Notes under the pieces: model-generated
The model's database searches: none
The model's input: the letters and a program-made list of their open reading frames with translations, nothing else
Told to the model about the DNA's origin: nothing
Translations under genes and position numbers: made by a program
Assembly (NCBI GenBank): GCA_029565735.1
Contig: JAKQNO010000032.1
Span: forward strand, 1,693-65,692
Source: a bacterium
GTDB lineage: Bacteria; Oederibacteriota; PGYV01
Reading direction: 5' to 3'
Length of the DNA: 64,000 nucleotides
In this document: positions 14,027-51,715 of the stretch, one piece after another
How positions within the stretch are numbered: position 1 is the stretch's first letter
Layout of the letters: every line of letters starts with the position of its first letter

Positions 14027-14121
14027 AATCCAGACCCATATTTCGAGCTGTTTTACCGCTTTACTTCTGTCCCTCCGTGCATCCGTCCCTCTGTCCCTCA
14101 TTTTTACAATAATTCCGGTCA

Positions 14122-19258: not shown

Positions 19259-19261
19259 TAA

Positions 19262-19470
19262 ATCTTAAGCTATAAGCATTAGGCAGTTAAGCATAAGCGA
19301 AAGGGAAATAAAAATAAGCAGGTAAGCATTAGGCAGTTAAGCATAAGCGAAAGGGAAATAAAAATAAGCAGGTAAGCATTAGGCAGTTAAGCATAAGCGG
19401 ACGGGAATGCCGGACTGTTTTTTATAATCTTTCGCTTATGCTTAATTGCTTATCAGCTTATTGCTTAAAG
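19262..19470. repeat. Tandem-repeat array (50-bp period, 2.5 units) plus inverted partial copies, giving a long imperfect hairpin
   Basis: Unit taagcattaggcagttaagcataagcgaaagggaaataaaaataagcagg at 19272, 19322 and 19372. The array ends with ggacgggaatgccggactgttttttataat followed by the reverse-complement segment ctttcgcttatgcttaattgcttatcagcttattgcttaaag. A related array lies at 26173-26569. Confidence 0.8.
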
Positions 19471-19586
19471 TTTAAACCGACCATCTGACCTTCCGACCTT
19501 CTGGCCCTCTTGTTTTACCCGTCTTCATAAGATATACTTTATTTACAAGGGAGTTTATGGGGCGAATACATCAAACAATACTCTGA

Positions 19587-21373
<1,787 letters not shown>

Positions 21374-21374
21374 T

Positions 21375-21707
21375 ATGCCAAAAAGGGACAATGATTACAG
21401 GAAAGAATTCAGTGAGAAAATTGACGGGGAGATAGACAAAAAAGAGCAGGCCCAAAAAGCCGGCCGTGAAACAATCTATTGGATAGGCGTTATGGGTATA
21501 GTGGGATGGTCGGTTACGCTGCCTTTGCTGGGCGGGATTTTTCTGGGAAAGTGGATTGATGAAAATTTTCCCGGCAGGTATTCGTTTACATTAATGCTGA
21601 TGTTTTCAGGGCTGGTTCTTGGGTGCTGGAACGCGTGGTACTGGGTAAAAAAGGTAAGCCGGAACAGAAAAGCAAAAGAAACAGAGGGGGAAAAAAAGAA
21701 GGGATAA
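21375..21707 (+). CDS. atpQ: AtpQ / AtpZ-like small membrane protein (ATPase_gene1 family)
   Basis: GWSVTLPLLGGIFLGKWIDENFPGRYSFTLMLMFSGLVLG matches the AtpZ/gene-1 pattern. Sits between atpC and atpR, as in N-ATPase operons. Confidence 0.6.
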   Translation: MPKRDNDYRKEFSEKIDGEIDKKEQAQKAGRETIYWIGVMGIVGWSVTLPLLGGIFLGKWIDENFPGRYSFTLMLMFSGLVLGCWNAWYWVKKVSRNRKAKETEGEKKKG

Positions 21708-21717
21708 GGAGGGTTAT

Positions 21718-22020
21718 ATGGATACAATACTTCTTTTGGCATCCGCGGCAGCGGGAATGGCAACAGCGGCTGTATACATGGCGCTGCTGAAAAAAACAGT
21801 TCGCCAGCTGACGTCAAAAACAAATCCTGCCGTGCTTGTAGCAGGGTATTTTTTAAGGCTTGCGGTCTGCGTTGCCTGCTTTGTGGCAGTGGCGTGGGGA
21901 AATCATATTGACCGCATTGCTGCCTGCCTGGCGGGATTTACTTTAATTCAGGTGATTTCAATTATTAAAGCCGGAAAGCAGCCCGGCTTTATAAAAGGCG
22001 GCAGCACACATGGAAATTAA
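21718..22020 (+). CDS. atpR: AtpR-like small membrane protein with two intramembrane Arg residues
   Basis: 100 aa with two transmembrane helices. Arg in VRQL and in FLRLAV. Position is between atpQ and atpB. Confidence 0.6.
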   Translation: MDTILLLASAAAGMATAAVYMALLKKTVRQLTSKTNPAVLVAGYFLRLAVCVACFVAVAWGNHIDRIAACLAGFTLIQVISIIKAGKQPGFIKGGSTHGN

Positions 22021-22681
22021 CCCTGATAATATGGAACTGTTTGCCATAGGGGCGCTGAAAATAAACGCGACAATATTCTATACGTGGATTGTAATGGCCG
22101 TGCTTGTGTCAGCATCCGCGGTTATCACATCAAAACTGTCAACCGGCAAGAAAGTGCCGCGCTGGCAGAGCGTGCTTGAAACGTTTGTGACTTTTATTAG
22201 CGGGCAGACAAAAGAAGTGACAGGAAGAAACCCGTGGGATTTTGTCCCTTTTCTGGGGACGCTGGCGCTCTTTATCCTTGCCTGCAACGTTATGGAAGTT
22301 GTGCCGCTTTATCATCCGCCGACATCTTCGTTTTCCACAACCGCGGCGCTTGCGGTTGCCGTTTTTTTTGCCGTGCCGTTTTTTGGAATCACGCAGAAAG
22401 GGCTGTGGAACCATTTAAAGTCTTATTTTCAGCCTTCGCCAATAATGCTGCCTTTTCACGTAATAAGCGAACTATCAAGGACAGTTTCGCTTGCAGTAAG
22501 GCTTTTTGGAAACATGATGAGCGAAAGCCTTATGATTGCCGTGTTTCTTTCTGTTGTGCCTTTATTTATTCCGCTGGTAATGCAGGGCTTTGGGCTGATA
22601 ATCGGAATTGTTCAGGCGTATATTTTCTTTACGCTTGCTTCGGTTTATATAGGTTCATCCGTGTCTGTACACGGGGAATAA
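22010..22681 (+). CDS. atpB: ATP synthase a subunit
   Basis: Conserved stator Arg in LAVRLFGNM. About five transmembrane helices. Confidence 0.85.
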   Translation: MEINPDNMELFAIGALKINATIFYTWIVMAVLVSASAVITSKLSTGKKVPRWQSVLETFVTFISGQTKEVTGRNPWDFVPFLGTLALFILACNVMEVVPLYHPPTSSFSTTAALAVAVFFAVPFFGITQKGLWNHLKSYFQPSPIMLPFHVISELSRTVSLAVRLFGNMMSESLMIAVFLSVVPLFIPLVMQGFGLIIGIVQAYIFFTLASVYIGSSVSVHGE

Positions 22682-22701
22682 AAAAGAAAGGAGGGGAACA
22701 A

Positions 22702-22980
22702 ATGGATAATGTGACGATAGTGGCCGTGGTTTCAATAATTACTTCAGGCGCGGTAATTACACTGGGTACAATGCTGCCCGCGTTTGGCGAGATGAAGGCG
22801 CTTATTAAGGCGCTTGAATCAATTACGCAGCAGCCTGACGCTTCAAATGTGTTAAGCAGAAACCTTTTTGTGGGCCTTGCCATGATTGAATCTCTGGCAA
22901 TATACTGCCTGGTAATTTCAATAATACTTATTCTGACAAACCCGTTCTGGAATTTTGTGACAAAAGCCGGAGGCGGATAA
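22702..22980 (+). CDS. atpE: ATP synthase c subunit, Na+-binding type
   Basis: 92-aa hairpin. Helix 2 carries IESLAIY (Glu, Ser and, five residues further on, Tyr). Helix 1 has a Glu in FGEMKA at the position of the Na+-coordinating Gln/Glu. RBS aaaggagggg. The longer ORF-track entry 22234-22980 is a frame artefact that overlaps atpB. Confidence 0.8.
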   Translation: MDNVTIVAVVSIITSGAVITLGTMLPAFGEMKALIKALESITQQPDASNVLSRNLFVGLAMIESLAIYCLVISIILILTNPFWNFVTKAGGG

Positions 22981-22983
22981 AAA

Positions 22984-23766
22984 ATGGAATTTGACCTGTT
23001 TACGTTCATAGCGCAGCTTATAAATTTTGCCATACTTGTCTTTCTGCTGAATAAGTTTTTATTCGGCAGGGTAAAAGCAGCCATGGATGAACGTGAAAAA
23101 AAGATTGCCGCCGGCATTGAAGCGGCCCAAAAGGCCGGCGCGGAAGCTGAAGAATCCGCGCGGCGCGCCGCTGAAGAACTGGCAAATCTTGAAAGCCGCA
23201 GGCAGGAAATGCTTGACGCTGCAAAAAAAGAGGCGCGGGATGAAGCTTTGCGGATTAAAGAGGCGTCGCGGAAAGAGGATGAGGAACAGAAAAAGAAATG
23301 GCATCTTGCGTTTGCCGCCGAACAGGACGATTACTTCAGAAAGCTTAAAGTGCATTCGGGAAGGTTTGCATGGATGGTTTCGGAAAAAATGCTGCGCGAG
23401 CTTTCCGGCGCGCAGATAGGCGAAAAAGCCGCGGAAATATTCGCGCGAAAAGTTGAAGAACTTGGCGAAAAAGAAGCATCCGGCTTCGCGGCCGCGGCAA
23501 ACAGGTCCCAAAAGCCGCTTGTAATTTTAAGTTCTTTTCCCGTTGACAGCGGGCAAAAAAACAGAATTGCGCTGCTTATGAAAGAAAAAGTGGGGTGCAA
23601 AAACGGGGTTGAATTCAGGCAGGACGCGGATATGGAATTCGGAATAGAGGCATCGGCCGAAGGTTACAGGATATCGTGGGGAGGAAAGGATTATACCGAA
23701 GCGATGCAGGACGAAGTGCTTGGTGTTTTTAAAAATGACAAAGGACAGGGCGGTTATGACGAATGA
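22984..23766 (+). CDS. atpF: ATP synthase b subunit with an extended C-terminal region (possible b-delta fusion)
   Basis: N-terminal transmembrane helix and a long charged coiled coil. The C-terminal ~90 aa ([28 protein letters not shown]...) resemble the C-terminus of a delta subunit (OSCP). No separate delta gene is present in the operon. Confidence 0.7.
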
Positions 23767-25315
23767 GAGCGGCGATATAAAAAGAAAGCTGGATAATATG
23801 CTTGATTCGGCTTTTACAGAGGCGGAAAAAAAGGCGCAGGGCATTAACGCGTCACTTGCTGCCGGTGAAACAGGCACGGTTATTGCCGTGGGAAGGGGCA
23901 TTTCTTCCGTTAAAGGGCTCTTTGGCGTTAAGTCCGATGAACTGATAAGTTTTCCCGGCGGAATATACGGCATAGCTTTTAATCTGGAGCCGGATTATGT
24001 ATCTGTGGTTATGCTTTCAAAAAGCGAAAGCGTATCCGCGGGAATGGAAGTAAAAAGGACGGGAAAAACCGTAAGCGTGCCGGCAGGCAATTCGCTGATA
24101 GGAAGGATAATTGACCCGCTTGGAAAACCGCTTGATGACGGGCCGGATATAAGCGCGGAAAAATGGTATCCCATAGAGCGGCCATCGCCTGTAATTATGG
24201 ACCGCGCGCCCGTGTCTGTGCCTTTGCAGACAGGGATACTTGCCATTGACGCGTTAATACCCATTGGCAGGGGGCAAAGGGAGCTGATTCTGGGCGACAG
24301 GCAGACAGGCAAGACCGCGGTCGCGGTTGACACGATAATAAATCAGCGCGGTAAAAATGTGATATGCGTTTACTGTTCCATAGGGCAGCAGAATTCCGCG
24401 GCCGCCAAAGTGATAGCCGCGCTTAAGGAATACGGCGCGATGGACTATACTTTTGTGGTGGCAGCCGGAGGGGACGACAGCCCGGGAATGAATTTTATAG
24501 CGCCTTATGCCGCCACTTCAATGGCGGAATTTTTTACGGAGCAGGGAAAAGATGTATTAATAGTTTACGACGATTTAAGCAAGCACGCCCGCTCTTACAG
24601 GGAGCTGTCGCTGCTGCAAAGAAGGCCGCCCGCAAGGGAGGCGTTTCCGGGCGATATTTTTTACATTCATTCAAGGCTGCTTGAAAGGGCCGCGCACTTA
24701 ACGGATAACAAAGGCGGCGGCTCGCTTACTGCGCTTCCTGTGGTTGAAACAGAGGCGCAGAATATAGCGGCTTATATACCCACAAACCTTGTATCCATAA
24801 CAGACGGCCAGATTTACCTTTCTCCAAAACTGTTTCAGCAGTCCGTGCTTCCGGCGGTTGATGTGGGAAAATCCGTGTCGCGCGTGGGCGGCGCGGCGCA
24901 GCTGCTGGCTTTCAGAAAAGAATCAGGGGATTTAAAACTTGCGTATTCGCAGTTTGAAGAATTGGAAATTTTTGAACGCTTTTCAACCAAGCTTGACGCT
25001 GAAACAAAAAAGACACTTGCGCGAGGCCACAGGATACGCGAAGTTTTAAAGCAGAAGCAGAGCAAACCTGTTCCGGTAACCGGGCAGATTGCGCTTTTAG
25101 CCGCGGTTAACAGCGGGCTTTTTGACGGTATTGATGAAAGCAAAGTATCGGCGGGCGCCGATGAAATAAGGTATAAAGTGGAAAATAAGCTTGGCAGCAT
25201 CGCGGAAAAAATTCAGTCAGGCGCGCAGTTTACTGATGAAGGCCGTGACGCTGTCCTTAAAGAAGCAAAAAGCCTTATAGCGGGCGCGCAGGAGGAAAAA
25301 GATGCGCCCGGCTGA
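23756..25315 (+). CDS. atpA: F-type ATPase alpha subunit
   Basis: P-loop GDRQTGKT. The start is ambiguous between the ATG at 23720 and the ATG at 23756 (ATGACGAATGA), which overlaps the atpF stop. Confidence 0.9.
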
Positions 25316-26174
25316 AGAGATAAAAAGAAAACTTACAGGCGCTGAATCTTTGCGGTCCATAGTAAGGACCATGAAAATACTTGCCGCGGTAAACGTAAGG
25401 CAGTATGAAAAAATGGCGGCAGAGGCGGATGATTATAATCTGGCTGTGGAAATGGGATTCAGCATATTTTTAAATCAAAATCCGTCAAAAGAATACGCGC
25501 CTTTGGCGCCGTCGGGAAAAAAGGGTTATATCATTTTAGGTTCGGATATGGGAATGTGCGGAAAATTCAATGAACTTTCGGCTGATTTTGCTTTGTCTGT
25601 TATAGAGGAACCGGAAAATGCTTTGGTTATGGCTGTGGGCGATAAAGTGGCGGGCAAGCTGGAAGACGCGGGTCTGGCGCCGGCTGATGTAATAATGTAT
25701 CCGGCTGTGCTGTCGGCGGGCATCGTGCCTATGCTGTGGGAGATATTAAACAAAGTTGAAACCTGGATGGAAAAACTTAATGTGAAGTCAATTGTGATAT
25801 GCCGTAATAAGCCGGCTGAATCAATGGGGTACGCGCCTGAAGCGAGGATGATACTTCCCATGGACCCGGCATATCTTGAAAAATTAAAAAGGACAGAATG
25901 GAAATCAAGAAGCATCCCGGTATATAAAGATGACAGGGAAAAACTTTTTTCAGGGCTTGTAAAAAACTACATATACGTGGCGCTTTACAGGGCGCTTGTG
26001 GAATCGCTTGTAAGTGAAAATACGGCAAGGCTTATTTCCATGCAGTCCGCGGAAAAACATACGGCTGAACGCATAGAAGAACTGACCCTTGAATACAATA
26101 TGGAAAGGCAGGATGCCATCACATCTGAAATACTTGACATCATCGCCGGCGCCGAAGCGGTAGAAGGGAAGTAA
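25302..26174 (+). CDS. atpG: ATP synthase gamma subunit
   Basis: 290 aa. Typical N- and C-terminal helices ([24 protein letters not shown]). Last gene of the operon. Confidence 0.85.
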
Positions 26175-26569
26175 AAATAAGCAGGTAAGCATTAAGCAGT
26201 TAAGCATAAGCGAAAAAAATAAGCAGATAAGCATTAGGCAGTTAAGCATAAGCGAAAGAATAAGCAGATAAGCATTAGGCAGTTAAGCATAAGCGAAAGA
26301 ATAAGCAGATAAGCATTAGGCGGTTAAGCATAAGCGGAAAAAAATAAGCAGATAAGCATTAGGCGGTTAAGCATAAGCGGAAAAAAATAAGCAGATAAGC
26401 ATTAGGCGGTTAAGCATAAGCGGAAGGAAAAAATAAGCAGATAAGCATTAGGCAGTTAAGCATAAGCGGAAGGAAATGCCGGACTGTTTTTATAATTTTT
26501 CGCTTATGCTTAATTGCTTATCAGCTTAATTGCTTATCAGTTTATTGCTTATCAGCTTATTGCTTAAAG
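26173..26569. repeat. Tandem-repeat array (7 direct units of ~41-45 bp) followed by ~3 inverted partial units, giving a long hairpin
   Basis: Units aagcagataagcattaggc(a/g)gttaagcataagcg separated by short A-rich linkers. The 3' end (ggaaggaaatgccggactgtttttataatttttcgcttatgcttaattgcttatcag...ttgcttaaag) is nearly identical to the 3' end of the array at 19262-19470. Confidence 0.8.
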
Positions 26570-37000: not shown

Positions 37001-40000
37001 CAGTCAGGCAATGTAACGCCGACCAACACAGCGGTTGTTACTTCAACATTTACCAGGACAAACACGCCCACAAACACGCAGGGTATTTCAACACCCACAC
37101 CGACAAGAACCCCCACGATTCCTGTTGTAACAGGCGGATTAAGGGACCTTGCGGCGGCAAAGGGAATGCTGCTTGGCGCGGAAGCGGCAAACAGCCCGCT
37201 TAGAAACGAAGCAATTTACAGCACCACGCTTGGCAAAGAATTCAACTGGCTGGGCGGAGAAAACGAGTTTAAAGCTTATTTATGGAACGGGCCGTACAGC
37301 TACAGTTTCTCCACAACAGATTATTACAGAAACTACAGGGATGCGAACAATATGGATATGAGGGGGCACGTGCTTGTTTATTACACGGTTGTCCCAGGCT
37401 GGATGAGTTCCGGAAATTATACCAGCGCTCAGGTAAGCGATATGCTTAAGTCATATGTTCAGACAATCTCTGCCAGGTACGCTGGCAAAATGAACCAGTG
37501 GGACGTTGTAAACGAAGCTGTCACAGACGGCGCGCCTTACGGGTACCGTTCCAATGACTTCTGGTACCAGAAGCTTGGCGATTACATCCCCAACGCTTTC
37601 AGATGGGCAAGGGAAGCTGACCCTAACGCGAAACTTTATTACAATGACTACGGCAACGAAGGGTTAAACGGAAAGTCAAATTACATTTACGATATGGTTA
37701 AAAATTTAAAAGCCCAGAATGTGCCGATTGACGGCGTGGGCTGGCAGTGCCACATAAGCAGCAGCTGGCGCTTAAATGACGATATCTATGAAAACGCGCA
37801 GAGGCTGACAGCGCTTGGCCTGGAAATAACCGTGACAGAACTTGACGTTGCAATACCGGTTCCGGTTGATTCAGCTAAACTTCAGTCACAGGCAAAGGCG
37901 TACGCTGATATGACATTCTTCACCATGACACATCCGAACATAAAGAAAATGTTCCTGTGGGGCTTTACAGACAAGCATTCCTGGATACCGGGCTTTACAG
38001 ACGGGGCATCCGATGCGGCGCTTATCTTTGACACCAACTATAACAAGAAACCCGCGTATTACGCGATACAGACCGTACTTGGTTTAAATCCCGTAAACGG
38101 CATTTACAACGGCGGATTTGAAAGCTCTGTATACTGCTTCAACGAAATGTCAGGCGGGGCAATAGCCGAAGAGACATCAATAGTTCACAGCGGGTCAAAA
38201 TCCGCAAGGGTATCCAACAGGTCGCAGGCATATCAGGGCATAGGCCAGCACATACTGTGGTACCTGCTGCAGAACGGGCAGGGCACATACAGCGCAAGCG
38301 TATGGGCGCGCCTTGCTTCAGGCACGGATAACGCGAAACTTACCCTTTACATAAAGGACGACGAAGGCGGAAAATACATAAGCTTAGGTTCTGTCGCGGC
38401 GAACAGCACGCAGTGGAGCCGGGTAAGCGGTTCAGCAAACGTAACATGGACCGGGCTTTTAAGGGTTGCAAGGCTTTTTGTTGAAACAGACACCACGACC
38501 GGAAACTTCTATGTTGACGATATGGCTTTTGCAAAAGAAGGCGCTTCAACACCCACGCCTGTTTTAACAGCGACAGCAACGGCAACAGCAACTTTAACGG
38601 CAACAGCCACAGTAACCGCAACACCTGTAACCGCCTCAACATGGCGCGTGCTTGCCGGAAGCGAAGTGGATTATGTGGATTCAACAGGCGCTGTATGGTC
38701 TGCTGACACTAACTTCACGGACGGAACGCCTTACAGCACGACAAAAACAGTTTCAGGCGCGCTGCCTGCATCGTCAGACATGGCGCTGTACCAGAGCGAA
38801 CGTTACGGCAATCCGTTCACATACACGTTCAATGTTCCTGCCGGTTCTTATCAGGTAACTATGAAAATGGCAGAAACGTACTTTACGGCAGCAGGCTCGC
38901 GCAGTTTTAATGTATCTGTAAACGGTACGGAAGTAATGACAAATTACGATATCTTTGCGGAGGCAGGCGCGGACAAAGCGGTTGACAAAGTGTTTAACAA
39001 CATAGCGCCGGTCAACGGAAAAATCACCATAGGATTTGGCCCGGCAGCTGTGGATAACGCGAAAGTATGCGCTATTCAGATAATACCGCAGCCGGTAATT
39101 GCAACTTCAACGCCGACAGCGACAAACACGGCAACCAATACGGCGACAAACACAGCGACAAAGACTGCAACTGCCACGCCGACGAACACCGCGACAAACA
39201 CGGCTGTTCCTCCTACAGCTACGGCAACAAATACATCAGTACCGCCGACAAATACAGCTACCAATACAGAAGTGCCGCCTACATCAACAGGCACAATAGT
39301 ACCGCCGACAGCAACATCGACAAGTACTTCAATACCTCCGACATCCACATCAACAAACACATCGGTACCGCCGACAGCAACATCAACAAACACATCAATA
39401 CCGCCGACAAACACGGCGACAAGGACGGCAACAAATACAGCTACAAACACAGCCACAAAGACTTTCACGCATACGCCTACAATGACAGCCACGAACACGG
39501 CAATAGTTCCTACAGCGACGAACACGCAGGTTGTAGTGGCAAACTTCACCATTATGCTTAAGAACCCGGATTCAGAAAATGTTGCAAGCCCGCACCCTTC
39601 GTTCAGGGTTGTCAATACCGGAAGCGCGGCGCTTAACTTAAACGGAATGGAAGTAAGGTACTGGATAAATTCTGATTCCAACGCAGGACAGCAGGTTCAG
39701 GCGTTTATTGACTGGGCTGGAAAACTTCCGCAGGGAAGCACAATTACTCAGAACTTAACGGTATCTACGGTACAGAAAGCTCAGGGAACTCAGAATTACT
39801 ACATAAGCTTCAAGTTTAATTCGTCGGTTGTGCTTGCGCCGAATGAATTCGCGGAAGTTCAGGCAAGGTTCAACAAATCTGACTGGAGCTCTATGCTGCA
39901 GTCAAATGACTGGAGCTTCGCGTCAGGCCAGGTTTACGCTCGCACGGATAAAATGACGGCGTATGTTTCAGGAGCCCTTGTATACGGAAACGAACCTACA

Positions 40001-40537: not shown

Positions 40538-40792
40538 ATGAAATTCGCAAATATAAGGGATTTAAGGCTTGATACAAACAGCGTGCTTAAATTAAGCGAA
40601 AAAGAGGGCCCTGTTGTGATTCTGCGCAATTCCAGGCCTGTCGCGGTTTTAAAATCAGTGACAGAAGAAGACATGGAAATTAAAGTAAATACTTTATGGC
40701 CAAAACTTCGCAATGCCGCGGAAAGGGCCGGTTATGGGCTGCATGATGTGGAAAAACTTATCCGCAGGGTAAGGCGCGGCCGCGGAAAATGA
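40538..40792 (+). CDS. Phd/YefM-family antitoxin
   Basis: 84 aa. MKFANIRDLRLDTNSVLK...GPVVILRNSRPVAVL pattern. Overlaps the downstream PIN gene by 4 nt. Confidence 0.65.
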   Translation: MKFANIRDLRLDTNSVLKLSEKEGPVVILRNSRPVAVLKSVTEEDMEIKVNTLWPKLRNAAERAGYGLHDVEKLIRRVRRGRGK

Positions 40793-41217
40793 AAAAGGGC
40801 ATCAGGGTTGTTATTGATACAAACGTTCTTATTTCGTCTTTCTGGGGTAAAAAACCTGAAGAAGTGATAAAACTGTGGGCAAAAGGCGCTGTAACAGCCG
40901 TGATAAGCCCGGATATTTTAAAAGAGTATCTTGAAGTCATACAAAGGTTTGACCTGTCAGAAGATGATATGGACGCTGTCATGGAAGTGCTGTCAGATTC
41001 CGCACATAATATATATGTCACTCCCCGTGAAAAAGTTAACGCTGTAAAAAAGGATAAATCTGACAATAAATTCATTGAATGCGCCATTGCCGGCAGGGCT
41101 GTATACATAATAAGCGGCGATAAACATCTTAGGGAGGTTAAGGAATATAAAGGGATAGAAATTCTGACACCGGCAGAACTTATTGAACTGATGAATAGTG
41201 ATAATTCCACAAAATAA
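40789..41217 (+). CDS. PIN-domain toxin (VapC-like)
   Basis: VVIDTNVLIS near the N-terminus and DNKFIECAIAGRAVYIISGDKHL near the C-terminus (PIN acidic residues). Confidence 0.8.
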   Translation: MKKGIRVVIDTNVLISSFWGKKPEEVIKLWAKGAVTAVISPDILKEYLEVIQRFDLSEDDMDAVMEVLSDSAHNIYVTPREKVNAVKKDKSDNKFIECAIAGRAVYIISGDKHLREVKEYKGIEILTPAELIELMNSDNSTK

Positions 41218-43935: not shown

Positions 43936-44076
43936 AACAGGCAAGGCGGCTGTTTTACATAATAATCATGCCGGACATTGGAAATAAAATACCTGATATA
44001 TTCATAAATTGCAGACCCGCTTTTTTTGTGGTAATGTAGAGCAAACGATTTACAAGACAAACAAAAAAGGGAAAAC

Positions 44077-45276
44077 ATGAAAACAAAATTCGCGTCACGA
44101 ATGAAATCCGTACCGCGCTCATTTATTCGTGAAATACTTAAGGTCACAACAGACCCTGAAATAATTTCCTTTGCGGGCGGGCTTCCAAACCTTCAGATGA
44201 TACCGGTCAGGGAACTTGAAGCCGCTGCTGATAAGGTTTTTGAAAGCGACGGCACAAGGGCGCTTCAGTACAGCACCACGGAAGGTTATTATCATCTGCG
44301 CGAATGGATATGCAAAAGGTATCTGGAAAAAAAGGGGATAAAAGCATCCCCTGATGACATACTTATCACGACAGGTTCCCAGCAGGCGCTTGACCTTCTT
44401 TCCAAAGTGCTTATTGATAAAGATGACAGGGTTGTAATTGAAAAACCGGGTTACCTTGGCGCCATCCAGGCCATGTCAGTGTTTCAGCCCAAATTCAATG
44501 CTGTTGAAGTTGATGAAACAGGTGTGGATACGGATAAACTTGAAAAGGTATTTAAGGCAAAAAAACCAAAGCTGTTTTATGCTGTTCCGAATTTTCAGAA
44601 TCCGTCAGGAATAACTTATTCTGACGCAGTCAGAAAAAAGACGGCAGTGCTCTGCAAAAAATACAGCGTTCTGTTTGTTGAAGATGACCCTTACGGCGAA
44701 CTGCGCTTTGAAGGTAATGACATGCCTGCCGTTAAGAATTACCTTGGAAAAGACGGGGTTATGTTTGGTTCGTTTTCAAAGATAGTGGCGCCCGGGCTTA
44801 GGCTTGGATGGGTATTTGCGCCCAAGGATATAATGGAAAGAATAGTCACGGTTAAACAGGCGGCTGACCTGCATACAAATTTTCTGGCTCAGCGCATAAC
44901 GTACCAGTATCTTCTGGATAATTCCATAGACGCTCATATTGAAAAATTAAGGAAAGTTTACGGGGTTCATGCAAAGGCAATGTTAAGCGCCATTGAAAAG
45001 TATTTCCCGCAGGAAGTGGCTTATACAAGGCCGCAGGGCGGCATGTTTATCTGGGCAAACCTTCCAAAGGGTTTAAGCGCGATGGATATGATAAAACCCG
45101 CGCTTAAAGACAAGGTTGCTTTTGTGCCCGGCGACCCTTTTTACACTGATGTAAAAGACGCCAATACCATGAGGTTAAATTACTCCAATGCCGCGCCTGA
45201 TGTGATAACAGAGGGGATAAAAAGGCTGGGTAATACCATTAAGAAGCTAATAGGGAAAGGCTGTGCGAAAAAATAA
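44077..45276 (+). CDS. PLP-dependent aminotransferase (class I/II, 2-aminoadipate/MocR-like catalytic domain, no HTH)
   Basis: SFSKIVAPGLRLGW contains the PLP-binding Lys. 399 aa. Confidence 0.8.
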   Translation: MKTKFASRMKSVPRSFIREILKVTTDPEIISFAGGLPNLQMIPVRELEAAADKVFESDGTRALQYSTTEGYYHLREWICKRYLEKKGIKASPDDILITTGSQQALDLLSKVLIDKDDRVVIEKPGYLGAIQAMSVFQPKFNAVEVDETGVDTDKLEKVFKAKKPKLFYAVPNFQNPSGITYSDAVRKKTAVLCKKYSVLFVEDDPYGELRFEGNDMPAVKNYLGKDGVMFGSFSKIVAPGLRLGWVFAPKDIMERIVTVKQAADLHTNFLAQRITYQYLLDNSIDAHIEKLRKVYGVHAKAMLSAIEKYFPQEVAYTRPQGGMFIWANLPKGLSAMDMIKPALKDKVAFVPGDPFYTDVKDANTMRLNYSNAAPDVITEGIKRLGNTIKKLIGKGCAKK

Positions 45277-45372
45277 CTCGGTGCCGGACATTGAAAGTAG
45301 AAAGTAAAATGCTTGTTTTATATACTCTCCCCAATTGCAATCCTGCCTTTTGTATGAATGGCGGGATTACGC
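45276..45372. repeat. Partial copy of the 173-bp inverted-repeat element (left arm only)
   Basis: aactcggtgccggacattgaaagtagaaagtaaaatg followed by ccaattgcaatcctgcc. These correspond to 47663-47735 in the full copy. Confidence 0.5.
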
Positions 45373-45545
45373 CGGGGAAAACATAGACAGCAGCAGGCTT
45401 TGATTTGACAAGAATCCGCATGCAAATGTAATATAGACGCAGTTAAATTTCATAAACTCATAGAGGGGTGTTATGATGACAGATTTAAATTCCGTATAAT
45501 TTCCTTGAATATCCGCCGTTTATTTTCATTAAAAAACAAAACTGT

Positions 45546-45574
45546 TTGACTATATACACATATTTGTGTATACT
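45546..45574 (+). promoter_or_regulatory. Promoter (ttgact - 17 nt - tatact) with an 18-bp palindrome atacacatatttgtgtat in the spacer
   Basis: Near-consensus hexamers. The palindromic operator is embedded in the spacer. RBS ggagggg and a TTG start follow. Confidence 0.55.
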
Positions 45575-45594
45575 GAATATATGGAGGGGTTAAA

Positions 45595-45933
45595 TTGGTC
45601 TCTGTAACTTATGATATGACAGAATCAGTAAAAGAAATAATAAAAAAGCTGCCGGATGGGCTTAAAAAGAAAATTGAAGCTTATATTGAAATACTTAAGA
45701 TTAAGGGGCATGAAATATCGCTCCCGTACGCGGATAAGATAGAAGGATATAAGAACATGCATGAATTAAGGCCGCATTTTCATAATATTGAATTCAGGCT
45801 TTTGTATTACTGGAACGGAAATCATGTACGGTTTGTTAACGCGTTTGAAGAAAGAGGGAAAAAGAAAGAAAACAGGCGGGAGTATGAAAAAGCCGACCAG
45901 ATACGAAATATTTTAACAGGAAAGGAGCATTGA
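45595..45933 (+). CDS. HigB-like / Gp49-like (RelE superfamily) toxin
   Basis: HELRPHFHNIEFRLLYYWNGNHVRFVNAFEERGKK. The toxin gene comes first, which is the HigBA-type order. Confidence 0.6.
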   Translation: MVSVTYDMTESVKEIIKKLPDGLKKKIEAYIEILKIKGHEISLPYADKIEGYKNMHELRPHFHNIEFRLLYYWNGNHVRFVNAFEERGKKKENRREYEKADQIRNILTGKEH

Positions 45934-46271
45934 AAATGAAAAAAATAAAGATTACTGAATCAGACCTGAAAATAGCATCTGCATCAGAGGTAAAAAAGAT
46001 TTTTGCTGAAGCGGGAAAAAGCAAAGAGGGTAAAAAGACGTATGCCGATGAGATGGAACTGTTTTATTTTATGGAAAAGATACAGCAGGAATTAAAACGA
46101 CGGCATATTAGCAGATATGCTTTTGCAAAGAATGCGGGTATGAATCCGTTTGTATTATCAAGGGCAATGACTAATATTGAGGACGCAAAGTACAAAACGC
46201 TTAAAAAAATGGCCAACGGCCTTGGAAAGGGATTAAGGCTGGAACTTTACGACCTGCCAAAACACACATAA
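45930..46271 (+). CDS. HTH (XRE-family) antitoxin, HigA-like
   Basis: LKKMANGLGKGLRLELYDL HTH motif. Four-nucleotide overlap with the toxin gene. Confidence 0.6.
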   Translation: MKMKKIKITESDLKIASASEVKKIFAEAGKSKEGKKTYADEMELFYFMEKIQQELKRRHISRYAFAKNAGMNPFVLSRAMTNIEDAKYKTLKKMANGLGKGLRLELYDLPKHT

Positions 46272-46321
46272 ATAGTAGTTTCCAGAGTAGTTGGTTTATA
46301 TTTAGTTTTGTTATTAGCCCT

Positions 46322-46348
46322 GGTAGACGCGGGTCTTCAGCCCGCGGC
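46322..46348. repeat. 26-bp hairpin repeat (tggtagacgcgggtcttcagcccgcg), + orientation
   Basis: Same family as the MITE terminal inverted repeats at 13853 and 14001. The upstream flank tggtttatattt(a)gttttg is also shared with the 13.8-kb locus. Confidence 0.6.
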
Positions 46349-46959
46349 AGTTGATTTGTATTTAATGTTTGTATTTGCTTTATGAATCATTTTGTACTTA
46401 TGAATTTGTAGGGACGGCGCTCCCGCGCTGTCCGCGTATTTGATTTGTCTTCATATCTTCCGTCCCTCCGTGCATCTGTCCCTTAGTCCCTCGGTTTTTC
46501 TGACCTTCCGACCCTCTGACCCTCCGACCTTCTGCTCTTTATTCCGTCTCTCTGGATTTATTTATGGGATATGGGATATGGGATAGAAGGTTATGGGATA
46601 AATTTTCTGTATTTCCTCAAAAACTCCTTGCCAAACCCCCAACACAGCCCTATAATACTAATTGTGGAAGGGGAAATTTACAAGGAAGCGGAGGGAACAG
46701 GGCATTGGGAGTAAGAATCAGTTCGTTTTTTCCTGTTATCAATAAAAATAATTATGTTAAATCTTGCCTGTTTGTCAAAAGCGTGGGTATGGATAATTGC
46801 TTGGTTATACTTCCTACTTTCATTTATCCGCTGGAGTGTAACGAAGACGGAAGGTCTGGCACGATTTTTTTTCCTAGGGTCTTATTTATGGGATAATTTA
46901 TATTTCAAACAGTTGACCGCTTTTGTTTTAAAGTGTAAAATTATTCCGGAGGTGAAAAA

Positions 46960-47274
46960 ATGGCTGTTAAAACAAAAGATGAAATCAAAACAATTACAGA
47001 ATATATAACCGGCAGGTTTAAACCTGTTAAAGTTATTTTATTTGGTTCTTATGCCTATGGCACACCCGGTGAAAACAGCGATGTTGATATACTTGTAATA
47101 GCAAAAGACGGCGAGGATATAGACGCAAAAGAAGTACGCGCCGCTGTCAGGGAAAAGTTTGGATATGCTGATTCTTTTGATATCATTGTAAGGACTGAAA
47201 GTTACCTGAATGAACGGGCAAAGGACGGGGATTTCTTTGTAAATGAAATGATTGATAAAGGAATGGAGCTTTGA
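46960..47274 (+). CDS. Minimal nucleotidyltransferase (MNT / MntA-like antitoxin)
   Basis: GS-x9-SDVD motif (GSYAYGTPGENSDVDILVI). Confidence 0.75.
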   Translation: MAVKTKDEIKTITEYITGRFKPVKVILFGSYAYGTPGENSDVDILVIAKDGEDIDAKEVRAAVREKFGYADSFDIIVRTESYLNERAKDGDFFVNEMIDKGMEL

Positions 47275-47645
47275 AACTTTCCGCCGGAGAATGGTTTAAT
47301 AAGGCCGATGAGGATTATACGGTGGCAGCAAGGGAGTCAAAGGCGAGTCCTGTCTTTCATAATATTGTATGCTATCATGCGCAGCAGGCAGCGGAGAAAA
47401 TGCTTAAGGCATACTTGCAGGAACTTGATATAAAATTCATGAAAACCCACAGCCTGCTTAAATTGCTTGAACTTTTAAAGACGGCGGATGTTTTTATGGT
47501 TTCTTTTCAGGATAGTTTTGCTTTTATAGATGACTTAACACCGGATATCAGGTATCCAGGACCCGGAGTAACAGAAGCGGATGCTAAAAGGGCTTTGGAA
47601 ATAACGGAAAAATTAAAAGCATATATTAAGGATAAAATGAAATAA
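47271..47645 (+). CDS. HEPN-domain protein (HepT-like toxin partner of MNT)
   Basis: Four-nucleotide overlap with the MNT gene. HEPN-like helices YHAQQAAEKMLKAYL and a C-terminal DIRYPGP motif. Confidence 0.7.
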   Translation: MKLSAGEWFNKADEDYTVAARESKASPVFHNIVCYHAQQAAEKMLKAYLQELDIKFMKTHSLLKLLELLKTADVFMVSFQDSFAFIDDLTPDIRYPGPGVTEADAKRALEITEKLKAYIKDKMK

Positions 47646-47662
47646 TACAAACAAAAAGGTAA

Positions 47663-47835
47663 AACTCGGTGCCGGACCTTGAAAGTAGAAAGTAAAATGT
47701 TTGTTTGATTTTTTCTCCCAAATTGCAATCCTGCTCTTTGTGTGGCAGGGCAAACAGATAATGGGAAAAGGGCATGAGCCTATCAGACGGGAATTATCTT
47801 CCGGGACTGTTTTGCTTTCTACTTTCAAGGTATGG
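47663..47835. repeat. 173-bp element with inverted ends (ccttgaaagtagaaag ... ctttctactttcaagg)
   Basis: Left arm aactcggtgccggaccttgaaagtagaaagtaaaatg. Right arm cttccgggactgttttgctttctactttcaagg. An internal ttgcaatcctgc stem is present. A partial copy lies at 45276. Confidence 0.55.
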
Positions 47836-47876
47836 TATTGATTTTGTAAGGTGTAGATTATAAAGTGAGGGTATAA

Positions 47877-48593
47877 TTGAAACTAATAACCTGGAACTGT
47901 AATATGGCTTTTAGGAAGAAAGCCAAACACATCTTTAAATACAACCCGGATATCCTTGTCCTGCAGGAATGCGAGCGTTCTTATAAAATACCATCTGAAC
48001 TATTCGGCAATAAACCAACAAGCCCGGCGATTTGGTATGGGGACAACAAGAATAAAGGAATAGGCATCTTTACTTTTAACGGATATAAAGCAAAAGTTAT
48101 AGAGCCGCCAAAGAAAAATGATAAATGGTTCATACCTATAAAGATAATCGGGCCTGAAAAGTTTAAACTTATAGCAGTATGGGCTATGAATTACAGAGCA
48201 AATGAAGTTGTTAAAGGTGTGCGTCCTGCATTTGCAAGTATTAAAGGGCTTCACAAGTATTTGGATTCAGGTGTTATCATGGCAGGTGATTTCAATGATA
48301 ATGTATGCTGGAATTATAAAAAGCGGGGAAAAGGAGATTTTACGGACAAACAGCTGTACCTTCAAAGCCTTGGCATCCAAAGCGCTTATCATATCCATAA
48401 TGCCAAACCCCACGGAAATGAACCTCATCCGACAATTGTGTGGATGAAAAACATGAAGACAACTTATCATATTGATTATGTGTTCTGCGGGGAAAAGTGG
48501 CAGGGCAGAATAAAGGCTGTATCTATAGAAAAGCCGGGTAAGTGGCTGAAATACAGTGACCATGTGCCGGTTATGGTGGAGTTTGGCGGTTAA
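47877..48593 (+). CDS. Endonuclease/exonuclease/phosphatase (EEP) family protein
   Basis: ITWNCN, VLQECE, GDFND, IDYVF and SDHVPV match the conserved EEP catalytic positions. Confidence 0.75.
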   Translation: MKLITWNCNMAFRKKAKHIFKYNPDILVLQECERSYKIPSELFGNKPTSPAIWYGDNKNKGIGIFTFNGYKAKVIEPPKKNDKWFIPIKIIGPEKFKLIAVWAMNYRANEVVKGVRPAFASIKGLHKYLDSGVIMAGDFNDNVCWNYKKRGKGDFTDKQLYLQSLGIQSAYHIHNAKPHGNEPHPTIVWMKNMKTTYHIDYVFCGEKWQGRIKAVSIEKPGKWLKYSDHVPVMVEFGG

Positions 48594-48613
48594 CTAAACT
48601 TAAAGGAGATTAT

Positions 48614-49087
48614 ATGGAGATAAGTAAAAGCAGCAGGCACTCGAAGATAACCGGAGATTTTGGCGAACATCTGGTTCTTTACTGGTTATCTAAACACGGT
48701 TTTGAATGTGCAAATGTAGATCATACGGGGATAGATATTATTGCGAAAAATCCCGTAACAAAAGAATTAATGGGGATATCTGTTAAGAGCAGAAGCCGAA
48801 ACAAAGGAACCGAGGACACCGGCGTCAATATACCCAGAGATAACATTGAAAAATCAAAGATTGCATGCGAAGCATTTGGATGTGTTCCGTATTTTGCCGT
48901 AGTGGTAGATGGTGCTTCAAAGATTATGGTTTTCATTCTATCACTAAAAGAGCTGCAAAAAATTCATCCGCCGGCAAAACGCATTTCGTCCTGGACAATG
49001 GGGAAGAAAAAGATTGATGAATACTATGCTAATCCCGATATAAAAATTTTTGAATTTGATTATAAGACTTCGAGATGGTGGGAGTAA
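48614..49087 (+). CDS. Small PD-(D/E)xK / YraN-like nuclease-fold protein (putative)
   Basis: GDFGEHLVLYWLSKHGFE ... VDHTGIDIIAK ... GISVKSR resembles the YraN/Hjc motif order. Ser occupies the usual Glu position in the (D/E)xK motif. Confidence 0.4.
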   Translation: MEISKSSRHSKITGDFGEHLVLYWLSKHGFECANVDHTGIDIIAKNPVTKELMGISVKSRSRNKGTEDTGVNIPRDNIEKSKIACEAFGCVPYFAVVVDGASKIMVFILSLKELQKIHPPAKRISSWTMGKKKIDEYYANPDIKIFEFDYKTSRWWE

Positions 49088-49176
49088 AAAAAACACCCGC
49101 TCCGGATGTTGGAAAAGTAAATATTCAATAACATAGCGGGCAGTTTGGGACGGTTGGCTTAACAATAACTCGTTTC

Positions 49177-49203
49177 CGCGGGCTGAAGACCCGCGTCTAC
49201 CAA
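49177..49203. repeat. 26-bp hairpin repeat, - orientation (reverse complement of 46322-46348)
   Basis: ccgcgggctgaagacccgcgtctacca. Together with 46322 it brackets a 2.9-kb segment. Confidence 0.6.
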
Positions 49204-49411
49204 ATCTAAACTAAGCTGCTGAACTGCCTGTCTTATTTATGGGATATGGGATAACAGGATATAGGATAAGGGTTGGGAATAAGGATTTACACAAGACCCT
49301 TTCCATAAAAACTCCTTTACAAATTCATTTTTTTCTGTAAAATAGTCCGAAAGTGTTTTTATCCGGTAAAACTGTGTTTTATAAACACTATACTTCATGA
49401 AGGAGGAACAG

Positions 49412-51715
49412 ATGGAAAACATCGCACTAAGCCCGTTGACAGGTTCAGAACTGAACATGATCTGGATCATCTGGGGCATCGCACTTGTTGCAATTGTGTA
49501 CGGTTTCTTTCTTATGGGCGAAATCACAAGAAAAGATTCCGGCACGGCCAAAATGATCGAAATTAATAACGCGATCATGGAAGGCGCGAACGCGTACCTT
49601 GCAAGGCAGTTCAAGACAGTTGCATTACTTGTAGTTGTTCTGGCAGTTGTCCTTTATTTCACGGGGACAGCGCATGATCCCGCAATTAACCTTGGAAGGG
49701 CAATTGCTTTTGTGCTTGGCGCAACAGCATCGGCTCTTACAGGTTTTATGGGGATGAGAATGGCTGTAAAAGGAAACGTAAGGGTTGCCGCTGCCGCGTT
49801 AAAAGGCAAAGTGGAATCGCTTACAATCGCTTTCAGGACAGGCGCTATTGCCGGTATGTTCACAATCGGCCTTGGCCTTCTTGGCGCGACATCAATATTC
49901 CTTATCTATAAAGAAAACCTCTCCGAAGTTCTTGTAGGATTCGGCTTCGGCGGATGCTTGCTTGCCATGTTCATGAGGGTAGGCGGCGGTATATACACAA
50001 AGGCAGCAGACGTTGGCGCTGACCTTGTTGGTAAAGTGGAAAAGAACATACCTGAAGACGATCCCAGGAACGCGGCGACAATCGCTGACAACGTTGGCGA
50101 CAACGTAGGCGACTGCGCGGGTATGGCAGCAGACATATTTGAATCATACGAAGTAACGCTTGTTGCTTCCATGGTTCTTGGCGCGACAGTATTCGGAAAC
50201 ATGGGCGTAATTTTCCCGCTCCTTCTCCGCGCTGTAGGCGTTATCACTTCAATCATCGGAACATATTTTGTAAGGGCAAAAAACGACAACGAACCCGCTA
50301 TGAAGCCGATAAACAGGGGCTTTATGGTTTCTTCAGTTCTTTCAATCATCGGCTTTGCCGCGCTTACAATAATGTATACGCAGGGAAGCATATTTAACAT
50401 CATGTCAACAGACGCAAAATGGGCAAACGTTCTTGCGGCCAACCCGGACGCTAACGTAGTCCTTGCGTGGAAGCTTTTTGCAATCACCACAATCGGTATT
50501 TTCCTGTCATTCGCAATTTCTTCAATGACGGAATACTTTACATCAACAGAAACAAAACCTGTTCAGGAAATCGCCAAAGCGACCCTTACAGGCCCGGCAA
50601 CAACAATCCTTTCCGGAACCGCTGAAGGAATGGAAAGCAGCGTATGGGCAATCCTTTCCATCGCTGTAGCAATTGCTTCTTCAATAATCGTATTCGCGAT
50701 AAACCCGATAGGCGACGCCATTCTTGTTGTTGAACAGACACTTTACGGCGTATCGCTTCTTGGACTTGGAATGTTGACCGTAACAGGCATCATCGTTGCG
50801 GAAGACACATACGGCCCCATATCTGACAACGCCCAGGGCGTTGGCGAAATGGCAAAGCTTCCTGAAAAGGCGCGCAAGGTTCTTGACGAACTTGACGCTG
50901 TTGGAAACTCCACAAAGGCCATCACAAAAGGTTTTGCAATCGCGACCGCTGTTATCGCGGCTGTATCGCTTTTTGGTTCTTACAAAGAAATCACCGGAAT
51001 GCAGTTCATCGACATAAGCAACCCTATGGTTCTTATCGGCTTGCTTGTCGGCGGCGCGGTTCCGTTCCTTTTCAGCTCGCTTTTAATCAGGGCGGTTGGA
51101 AGGGCTGCGTTCCTTGTTGTTAACGAAGTACGCAGGCAGTTCAGGGAAATTAAGGGAATCATGACAGGCAAACAGAAACCGGAATACGGCAAAGTTGTTG
51201 ATATCTGCACAACAGCGGCTATCAAAGAACTTATCGGGCCGGGGCTTATCGCTCTTCTTATGCCTGTTATAGTAGGTTTCTTATTCAAGGCTGAAGGGCT
51301 TGGCGGATACTTAGCCGGCGTTATCGTTGTCGGACAGCTTCTTGCCGTGTACCTGTCCAATTCGGGCGGCGCATGGGACAATGCCAAGAAATTCATTGAA
51401 CAGGGCAATTATGGCGGCAAAGGTTCCGAAGCTCACAAAGCTGCGGTTATCGGCGACACCATCGGCGACCCGTTCAAAGACACAGCAGGACCCGCGTTAA
51501 ACCCGCTTATCAAGGTTATGAACCTTGTGGCTATCCTTATCGCGCCTCTTATCATCAAGAATCCGGGATATGGCCCGGGAGTTATAGCTGTTGTTGTTAT
51601 CTGCCTTGCAATCATCGGCACAGCGCTTTTCTTCTCCAAAAGGGAAGATAACAGCGGAATAGCGGCCGAAGTTGCACAGACAGTAAGCGGCAAAGCAAAA
51701 GGCAAAAAGAAATAA
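49412..51715 (+). CDS. hppA: Membrane-bound proton-translocating pyrophosphatase (H+-PPase), K+-independent type
   Basis: [29 protein letters not shown] and [14 protein letters not shown] (Lys in place of the Ala that marks K+-dependent enzymes). The ATG at 49412 is preferred because of the aggagga RBS. The track start is 49397. Confidence 0.9.

Follow-up and report, generated by a model that had tools for sequence, protein, structure and literature searches.

Repeat-flanked MNT-HEPN and nuclease-like genes of a Candidatus Goldiibacteriota genome form neither one cassette nor one system

In known MntA/HepT-type pairs, the gene of a minimal nucleotidyltransferase (MNT) is followed by an overlapping HEPN gene. 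The canonical HEPN toxin carries the RNase motif Rx4-6H; HEPN-T members often lose the histidine of this motif (PMC3710099). A pair resembling these systems is present in a Candidatus Goldiibacteriota MAG. Its two genes are adjacent with an overlap of 4 nt, both proteins score above the Pfam thresholds and together they form a HEPN-T (PF05168)/MNT gene dyad. The nucleotidyltransferase motif GS...DxD is present in the MNT as G29-S30...D41-V-D43, while in contrast to the canonical HEPN toxin Rx4-6H is absent from the HEPN protein, in which YPGPGVTE comes after R104 and no histidine stands at +5 to +7 (read from sequence and translation). Further differences are the score of the MNT with the MntA NCBIfam model (29.4 bits, cutoff 60) and the lack of any HepT NCBIfam model matching the HEPN protein. 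The pair is most likely an addiction-type module; judged from its family, it would most likely act as a toxin-antitoxin system in which the MNT restrains HEPN.

The MNT-HEPN pair is located in a 4.1-kb gap between the end of an aminotransferase gene (45276) and the start of an H+-pyrophosphatase (H+-PPase) gene (49397). All positions refer to the window, which is the whole 64-kb stretch of DNA that was analysed (Table 1). We give a probability of about 0.75 to the reading that this gap is an accretion spot for small accessory modules of low GC content. It would contain three mutually independent modules of two genes each: HigB(Gp49)/HTH, MNT-HEPN, and an EEP nuclease gene with the gene of a 157-aa Hjc-fold protein. 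Dispersed intergenic repeat families would stand between them, namely two hairpin families (one of them REP-like), a C/T-rich module, TATGGGATA arrays that precede promoter-like sites, and an 82-nt repeat following stop codons. Gain and loss of modules would probably use these repeats as recombination breakpoints, and the apparent brackets around four of the genes would be two independent repeat copies rather than mobile-element ends. The GC content of all six accessory genes is 0.36-0.40 versus 0.44-0.49 in the flanking housekeeping genes, which bears out the accessory nature that an earlier note on this DNA had ascribed to them, and each of the three modules has its own promoter-like site. 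The Gp49-like toxin gene and the HTH gene overlap by 4 nt; this pair and a PhdYeFM-PIN pair in the window are the two other toxin-antitoxin pairs that had been reported nearby. Downstream of a strong promoter-like site to which no gene was assigned, the region 46662-46880 folds no better than shuffled sequences (z +1.35) and has no Rfam match. Its small ORFs look spurious, and an sRNA or type I toxin at this position was not supported. Rfam yielded nothing relevant on the whole window at the gathering threshold or on 45200-49450 at E<=1, and ARAGORN detected no tRNA or tmRNA as a possible integration site.

Table 1. Genes, repeats and promoter-like sites of the gap between the aminotransferase and H+-PPase genes (window positions).
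Feature	Coordinates	Strand	Remarks
82-nt repeated intergenic sequence, copy	45275..45356	+	directly 3' of aminotransferase stop; partner 47663-47744, 88% identity over 82 nt
Gp49/HigB-like toxin gene (module 1)	45595..45933	+	PF05973, E 1.1e-10; GC 0.357
HTH antitoxin-like gene (module 1)	45930..46271	+	HTH_3 weak match, E 0.0065; phrog_1373 transcriptional regulator, E 4.8e-5
REP-like hairpin H1, left copy	46321..46346	+	6-7 bp GC stem; 50 nt past HTH gene end
Second hairpin family H2, GGACAGCGC-loop-GCGCTGTCC	46405..46434	.	dG -18 kcal/mol, z -2.9; further copies 11793, 11870
C/T-rich short-repeat module (family D6)	46449..46546	+	related copies 14056-14113, 19474-19515
TATGGGATA array holding left 21-nt direct repeat	46558..46600	+	
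Strong promoter-like site, no gene assigned	46628..46656	+	TTGCCA-17-TATAAT; facing minus-strand site at 46778-46751
Partial third 21-nt repeat copy, then MNT promoter-like site	46882..46941	+	TTGACC-17-TAAAAT
Minimal nucleotidyltransferase MNT (module 2)	46960..47274	+	NTP_transf_2, E 2.3e-11, 44.3 bits vs gathering score 21
HEPN protein, HEPN-T (PF05168) type (module 2)	47271..47645	+	PF05168, E 1e-22, 81 bits vs gathering score 22
184-nt inverted-repeat element	47662..47845	.	dG -73.7 kcal/mol, z -5.6
EEP nuclease, ExoIII/APE/LINE-1-endonuclease structural class (module 3)	47877..48593	+	TTG start; Exo_endo_phos 29.8 bits vs cutoff 24.5
157-aa Hjc-fold protein gene (module 3)	48614..49087	+	20 nt after EEP; AGGAG ribosome-binding site; E18, D41, S56-x-K58
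REP-like hairpin H1, right copy	49177..49202	-	exact 26-mer; relatives also carry right copy
TATGGGATA array holding right 21-nt direct repeat	49233..49268	+	within PPase upstream region; relatives too
Promoter-like site of H+-PPase gene	49316..49343	+	TTTACA-16-TAAAAT; conserved in L167 and L168

The repeats and the four genes of modules 2 and 3 are real, but they are neither one cassette nor one system. The reading of the earlier note, a single accessory or mobile cassette at 46322-49262 that is delimited by the inverted hairpins and the 21-nt direct repeats and whose four genes would serve defence or addiction as one system, is one that we regard as very improbable. Both repeat pairs on which it was built were verified. 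Exact copies of the 26-mer TGGTAGACGCGGGTCTTCAGCCCGCG form the left (+) and right (-) H1 hairpins, with 0 expected from shuffles (the left one starts at 46321, one position before the coordinate given earlier), and the inverted pairing can be followed over 34 nt with 91% complementarity (46314-46347/49176-49209). Likewise, exact copies of the 21-mer TTATTTATGGGATATGGGATA occupy 46558-46578 and 49233-49253, against a chance expectation of 0. Exact repeats that are not due to chance are consistent with a single cassette, as are the co-oriented, compact and low-GC genes and the nuclease or toxin folds in three of the four proteins. However, the direct repeats do not flank the genes precisely, as had been claimed, since 382 nt separate the left one from the MNT start and the right one begins 146 nt past the stop codon of the 157-aa gene. 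They are also not nested inside the hairpins: the right direct repeat falls outside the right hairpin, and together with the 82-nt repeat the three pairs interleave (45275 < 46321 < 46558 < 47663 < 49177 < 49233). Two more H1 copies with one mismatch each are found at 13853(+) and 14001(-), which brings the total to four copies in 64 kb; therefore, H1 is not unique to the segment. Further copies of the 21-mer are present at 46882-46902 (81%) and 13796-13816(-) (3 mismatches), and the C/T-rich module plus array recur at 13796-14113 and, in relatives, upstream of the PPase gene. The hairpin and direct repeats thus belong to dispersed intergenic families. Among the features of a transposon or MITE, terminal inverted repeats are present (the 34-nt arms), though from a dispersed family; neither a repeat-bounded presence/absence polymorphism nor, judging by the sequence, a target-site duplication outside the arms or a recombinase or transposase inside the segment was found, and the flanks outside the arms differ. 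The idea that the two H1 copies are the 'left-type' and 'right-type' ends of one element was rejected, as all four copies are of one unit type. The 184-nt element belongs to the 82-nt repeat family by its left part and has a right arm peculiar to the window strain. A conserved long hairpin was rejected here because this arm is absent from the relatives.

The comparison with close relatives further argues against a single cassette. MNT-HEPN is absent from the nearest ones, L166, L168 and L169 (86% nucleotide identity) and L167 (93%), in which the EEP and 157-aa genes are retained together with the right hairpin and the H+-PPase gene. Their homology to the window begins at 47669, at neither the 21-nt nor the 26-nt repeat, and upstream of this breakpoint they have unrelated genes, including an IS3 OrfA-like ORF. 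In L166 the right H1 hairpin stands alone, with no left partner within 4.2 kb. At least eight contigs from several samples share an identical six-gene arrangement, and this stability, although in favor of one cassette, is explained by their belonging to one population (99-100% identity). The contigs L178, L188 and L189 break at the left H1 hairpin, and contig ends from other samples fall within the hairpin and within the 184-nt element. Among the relatives, no empty site with clean aminotransferase-PPase synteny was found, those with an aminotransferase of 72% identity not being syntenic. Because of this, gain and loss at the repeats was inferred, not observed. When metagenomes were scanned with the PPase protein, none of the matches listed was closer than 69% identity, and their upstream DNA was too short. 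As to the indel for which the earlier note had proposed a comparison with related genomes, part of the interval does vary between strains, but the breakpoint is 47669 and does not coincide with the 21-bp repeats.

The right-hand array lies in the upstream region of the PPase gene, and it could be considered that the 21-nt repeats mark a local duplication of this region upon DNA insertion, with the block between them being a single insertion. The PPase-upstream module of the relatives can be aligned to 46436-46668, the shared parts being a C/T-rich stretch (46449-46546 in the window), a TATGGG array, AAAAACTCCTT and also a -35 hexamer, and the two arrays of the window have 21 identical nt, whereas the relatives differ. 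Nevertheless, we consider this distinctly unlikely: the relatives have the EEP and 157-aa genes beside the PPase gene without MNT-HEPN, so that the block was not inserted as one piece, and the same type of module is found at 13796-14113 and so represents a dispersed family.

Co-location of the EEP gene and the small gene in other genomes, on which the earlier note had let its proposal depend, was not found outside the lineage. By tblastn and an HMM built from EEP homologues, an EEP gene was present within 6 kb of the 157-aa gene in 0 of 80 genomes from many phyla, and no conserved neighbor of the 157-aa gene was detected across the 80 loci. A Pfam census of the genes flanking its homologues revealed no family in more than 3 of 146, the neighbors being mostly housekeeping genes, and the small gene is missing from two EEP homologue contexts. 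PADLOC-DB 2.0 recognized only the MNT (candidate family PDC-S09, E 3.5e-8), while the HEPN, EEP and 157-aa proteins gave no match at E<=0.1, and PHROGs gave none for the same three proteins. With no conserved neighborhood, relatives lacking MNT-HEPN and only the MNT recognized by PADLOC, the four-gene system was not upheld. What stands of the candidate defence or addiction cassette are accessory genes with an addiction-type MNT-HEPN pair; the single 2.9-kb repeat-delimited unit does not.

The EEP and 157-aa genes are probably co-transcribed here, each being solitary elsewhere. They could form a genuine lineage-restricted two-nuclease operon for repair or defence, with the 157-aa partner promiscuous elsewhere. 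The short gap with its ribosome-binding site (Table 1), the adjacency and common orientation kept in every close relative (86-93% nucleotide identity) and a DNA-nuclease fold in both proteins are in agreement with this. One homologue of the 157-aa protein (75%) is encoded in an operon with type IIG methylase-like, PDDEXK_1 and Fic genes; therefore, the family can occur in conflict-type neighborhoods. Against it stand the 80 loci without a nearby EEP gene and their mostly housekeeping neighbors. Moreover, the closest homologues outside the lineage differ in source and depth (157-aa protein: Nanoarchaeia, 76%; EEP: Clostridium, 46%), which argues for separate origins. We regard the operon as possible but doubtful. 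Similarly tentative, and with little probability, is the view that the 157-aa gene would have been recruited in the Goldiibacteriota lineage with an ExoIII/L1-EN-like EEP gene as a lineage-specific DNA-processing or defence module. We favor the accretion spot, in which these genes would be one of three independent modules.

The domain calls made earlier for MNT, HEPN, EEP and the YraN/Hjc-like protein were correct, the last one by structure, as its sequence scores are sub-threshold. In the family alignment of the EEP protein N7, E33, D138, N140, D200, D228 and H229 are invariant, in agreement with the full set of catalytic motifs reported for it. Foldseek matched it to L1-EN, NExo, ExoIII and APE1 (E 6e-14 to 1e-10, TM 0.65-0.74). 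The Pfam score, the catalytic N/E/D/N/D/D/H set and the four-layer EEP fold place it in the EEP superfamily, in which it belongs to a distinct family of ~237 aa beginning MKIITWNCNMAFRKKA. IMG/VR contained three weak matches to the EEP protein (30-32% identity), and PDB sequence searches were uninformative for both proteins of the module. For the 157-aa protein, sequence matches to UPF0102, Mrr_cat and Hjc were all sub-threshold. Its AF2 model (pLDDT 81) gave Hjc structures as best Foldseek matches (2wcw: E 1.6e-5, TMt 0.67-0.70), and on this model the protein has a predicted restriction-endonuclease-like (Hjc) fold. The Glu-to-Ser change noted earlier in its (D/E)xK motif is real: S56-V-K58 replaces ExK, and across the family position 56 holds S, T, A or L, never an acidic residue. 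The E...D...(D/E)xK set is thus incomplete, though E18, D41 and K58 are present. The family is small and discrete, with 512 cluster representatives (50% identity) among 1.84 billion, and its conservation is unusually high (55-76% identity between bacterial and archaeal phyla). It was not found in plasmid and phage collections, with a single match in IMG/VR, and the GC content of the gene tracks that of the host (r 0.82). The gene as a mobile element with conserved flanks was rejected, since no flanking DNA is shared except between related genomes.

Two cautions follow from this locus. In genomes rich in dispersed intergenic repeats, an exact repeat pair around small genes does not equal a mobile cassette, and adjoining nuclease-like genes do not by themselves make a system. 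For an uncultured phylum, the gap would represent a strain-variable accretion spot that gains and loses toxin-antitoxin-like modules at the edges of repeats. The small, sharply conserved Hjc-like family with its altered active site is a modest curiosity that could merit biochemistry.

Compared with known systems, the EEP protein shares the fold and the conserved catalytic residues (N/E/D/N/D/D/H) with Exonuclease III, APE1 and LINE-1 endonuclease. In contrast to these, its identity is just 14-22%, and it scores far below the cutoffs of the Xth/ExoIII equivalogs TIGR00195 and TIGR00633 (32.1 vs 182.55 and 28.5 vs 99.05 bits). In the 157-aa protein E18 (in the N-terminal helix), D41 and K58 align with catalytic positions of Hjc and YraN, whereas its family has no second acidic residue and ~45 extra C-terminal residues. 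It also stays below the cutoffs of the Hjc, YraN and UPF0102 models (for YraN/UPF0102, 19.9 vs 23.6 bits with Pfam and 15.2 vs 109 bits with NCBIfam). The H1 repeats differ from REP and REPIN sequences in that no RAYT transposase was identified, the copies being counted within 64 kb only, and the 46321/49177 pair is spaced by 2.8 kb, far more than a REPIN doublet. As in REP, BIME and REPIN sequences, H1 consists of short intergenic hairpins with a GC stem that occur in several copies downstream of gene ends, and the pair at 13853/14001 is, like a REPIN, an inverted doublet with a spacing of 122 nt.

The six genes between the aminotransferase gene (ending at 45276) and the H+-pyrophosphatase (PPase) gene (starting at 49397) have a GC content of 0.36-0.40, compared with 0.44-0.49 for the flanking genes and 0.447 for the window. 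The low GC of all six indicates that the entire 4.1-kb gap is accessory, and not only the 2.9 kb for which the earlier note had proposed this. Its genes are arranged in three pairs, HigB-like/HTH, MNT/HEPN and EEP/Hjc-like; a promoter-like site precedes each of these modules, and dispersed repeats lie between them. The domains previously assigned to the MNT, HEPN, EEP and YraN/Hjc-like proteins were confirmed. A defence-island setting had also been suggested; further toxin-antitoxin pairs are indeed located nearby, but the surroundings are otherwise housekeeping and do not form a defence island. A PhdYeFM antitoxin and PIN_3 toxin pair (40538-41217), between a 2097-aa gene and housekeeping genes, is the third toxin-antitoxin module within ~9 kb.

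Features of the accessory gap and related repeat copies in the window
Feature	Position	Remarks
26-mer TGGTAGACGCGGGTCTTCAGCCCGCG	46321-46346 (+), 49177-49202 (-)	exact copies
Further hairpin copies	13853 (+), 14001 (-)	
Second hairpin family	46405; other copies 11793, 11870	after left hairpin
C/T-rich module	46449-46546; related copies 14056-14113, 19474	
TATGGGATA array		after C/T-rich module 46449-46546
21-mer TTATTTATGGGATATGGGATA	46558-46578, 49233-49253	exact copies
Promoter-like sites	46628, 46913, 49316	downstream of recurrent module
MNT	46960-47274	NTP_transf_2, E 2.3e-11
HEPN	47271-47645	PF05168, E 1e-22
EEP	47877-48593	Exo_endo_phos match above threshold
157-aa protein	48614-49087	weak YraN/Mrr/Hjc sequence signals only
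82-nt repeat pair	45275, 47663	88% identity

The inverted 26-bp hairpin repeats and 21-bp direct repeats reported to bracket the segment both exist, at coordinates correct to within 1-2 nt. Around the 26-mer pair (0 expected from shuffles) the inverted repeat reaches 34 nt with 91% complementarity. All four hairpin copies in the window have an identical type of flanking unit. The direct repeats, described as nested within the hairpins and as flanking the genes precisely, are neither: the right one falls outside the right hairpin, and 382 nt separate the left copy from MNT and 146 nt the last gene from the right copy. The aminotransferase and HEPN genes are each followed, directly past the stop codon, by a copy of a third, 82-nt repeat. 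In their order along the window (45275 < 46321 < 46558 < 47663 < 49177 < 49233) the three pairs interleave, which points to a mosaic and is at odds with a single nested bracketed unit.

In close relatives, the 157-aa gene is followed by a hairpin (-), a C/T-rich module, a TTATTTATGGG array and the PPase promoter, and the left module of the window (46436-46668) aligns with this PPase-upstream module up to a common AAAAACTCCTT and -35 hexamer. Given this module order and alignment, the 21-nt repeats are the array portions of a recurrent intergenic module that is present here in two copies upstream of promoter-like sites. Hairpin and 21-mer repeats are dispersed families and not unique brackets. 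Two strong promoter-like sites with 11/12 consensus matches each, 46628-46656 (+) and 46778-46751 (-), face each other ~100 nt apart; in the stretch around them no ORF was credible, Rfam gave no match and the fold was not unusual.

With small stems of 6-7 bp, no T-tract and a position 50-170 nt 3' of gene ends, the hairpins resemble REP elements more than terminators. An inverted doublet of this hairpin at 13838-14041 (41-nt arms, 85% complementarity, 122 nt apart), located between two convergent genes with a TATGGG-like array on one side and a C/T-rich module on the other, resembles a REPIN. Elsewhere in the window, tandem arrays of ~41-50-nt units (AAGCAGrTAAGCATTAGGCAGTTAAGCATAAGCG...) with inverted partners (19260-19460 and 26173-26560) border another repeat-flanked gene block (19608-26174). 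Long ACn-rich codon repeats encoding Thr-rich low-complexity stretches (8630-9400 and 38540-39520) are found within a 1249-aa and the 2097-aa ORF, and these runs have repeat families in common.

The window is 99-100% identical to the Candidatus Goldiibacteriota MAG GCA_035443785.1 and several metagenome contigs, with identical gene order throughout. Among same-population contigs that come from other samples, L178 ends at 46348 and L188 and L189 start at 46328, within the hairpin, and L189 stops at 47685 inside the 184-nt element (47662-47845); as assemblies are expected to break at multi-copy repeats, such contig ends are what these repeats would produce. L178 represents a 99%-identical strain from another sample. 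An additional gene of 120 aa (L178 1767-2286) separates its methyltransferase and aminotransferase genes; at this site (43936-44054) the window contains a short segment of the 82-nt family (43969-43989), making it the second repeat-associated spot to vary between strains.

A copy of the 157-aa protein with 98% identity led to a diverged relative (L166, L168 and L169 at 86%, L167 at 93% nucleotide identity). It retains EEP, the 157-aa gene, the right hairpin and the PPase gene, while MNT-HEPN is absent upstream of EEP; the two pairs are therefore separable. Homology to the window starts at 47669, on the left border of the 184-nt element, so that the breakpoint falls at neither the 26-bp nor the 21-bp repeats that had been taken to delimit the segment. 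Upstream of it, the relative has unrelated genes: one for a membrane/TPR-like protein (202/304 aa), several small ORFs of unknown type and one ORF that is IS3 OrfA-like. No left hairpin was found in 4.2 kb of L166, though the right one is present. Only in the window strain does the 184-nt element form its long hairpin (dG -73.7 kcal/mol, z -5.6); in relatives the right arm is missing. Remoter relatives (aminotransferase 72%; PPase 69% among the matches listed) showed no synteny or had too short a flank.

Conservation of the EEP/157-aa pair across genomes, as previously proposed, was analyzed within 6 kb either side of the 157-aa homologue in 80 species-representative genomes. Using tblastn and an HMM of EEP homologues, no EEP gene was detected (0/80), nor was there a recurrent neighbor family. 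In a Pfam census of flanking genes (n=146) the commonest family occurred 3 times, and most were housekeeping enzymes. EEP homologues beyond the lineage (<=46% identity; Clostridium, Paenibacillus, Chitinophagaceae, Halorussus) had no partner like the 157-aa gene in the contexts examined. Together, these results provide, beyond the immediate lineage, the lack of co-location that the earlier note had named as refuting its reading. A functional link within this lineage may nevertheless exist, as the genes are 20 nt apart in the same orientation and kept together in close relatives, synteny being its sole support. PADLOC recognized MNT alone, as candidate family PDC-S09, and a PHROGs search with HEPN, EEP and the 157-aa protein gave no match. 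The modules of the gap are separable, its repeats are dispersed, and neither the four-gene nor the EEP/157-aa combination is conserved outside the lineage. The segment is neither a discrete cassette nor a new four-gene system but an ordinary accretion spot that varies between strains, in which repeats would have served as recombination breakpoints where modules were gained or lost.

The MNT-HEPN pair presumably constitutes a toxin-antitoxin module. MNT carries the motif G29-S30...D41-x-D43 in its sequence. HEPN belongs to the HEPN-T (PF05168) type, and no His is present 4-6 residues past R104; in HEPN-T members this His is often replaced or lost, and an alternative His is possible in some (PMC3710099). 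RNase toxicity is a plausible candidate function; membership in the characterised HepT/MntA type VII family was not established. The AF2 model of EEP (pLDDT 86.5) best matched LINE-1 endonuclease, Neisseria NExo, E. coli ExoIII and APE1 (E 6e-14 to 1e-10), and N7, E33, D138, N140, D200, D228 and H229 are invariant across the family. EEP most likely works as a Mg-dependent nuclease on DNA or as a 3'-end-processing enzyme, and both EEP and the 157-aa protein would act on DNA. Assignment of EEP as an Xth equivalog was rejected.

Of what remains, the 157-aa Hjc-like family is the most novel: its active site is altered, its sequence is strongly conserved, and its distribution is patchy and solitary. 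No Pfam model covers this tight family, whose >1,600 homologues are 55-76% identical and consistently ~157 aa long; at 50% identity it accounts for only 512 of the cluster representatives among 1.84 billion proteins. Its members are spread over many bacterial and archaeal phyla, with hosts in Nanoarchaeia, Pacearchaeota, Patescibacteria, Proteobacteria, Bacillota, Chloroflexota, Planctomycetota, Bacteroidota and further groups, while the protein is absent from plasmid and phage collections. At loci L006-L085 the genes have a mean GC of 0.43 versus 0.52 for their flanks, yet correlate with host GC (r 0.82). Their contexts differ greatly, one adjoining archaeal RNA polymerase and exosome genes. 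At L173 (1029-5974), a 75%-identical homologue overlaps a PDDEXK_1 gene end by 4 nt in an operon that also contains a type IIG methylase-like (N6_Mtase/Eco57I-type) gene, an unknown 453-aa gene and a Fic gene, and adjoins a DDE transposase gene. The closest homologue outside the lineage (L006, Nanoarchaeia, 76%) lies downstream of a PF10107 'endonuclease related to archaeal Holliday junction resolvase' (5209-5976, E 1.2e-37). The reported Glu-to-Ser change is correct and is a trait of the whole family rather than decay of one copy: where the second acidic residue would stand, close and remote members alike have Ser or Thr, in rare cases Ala/Leu, and never an acidic residue, giving (S/T)xK for ExK. 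The AF2 model (pLDDT 81) best matched archaeal Hjc resolvases (E 1.6e-5, TMt 0.67-0.70), and the catalytic positions of Hjc/YraN are matched in the alignment by E18, D41 and K58.
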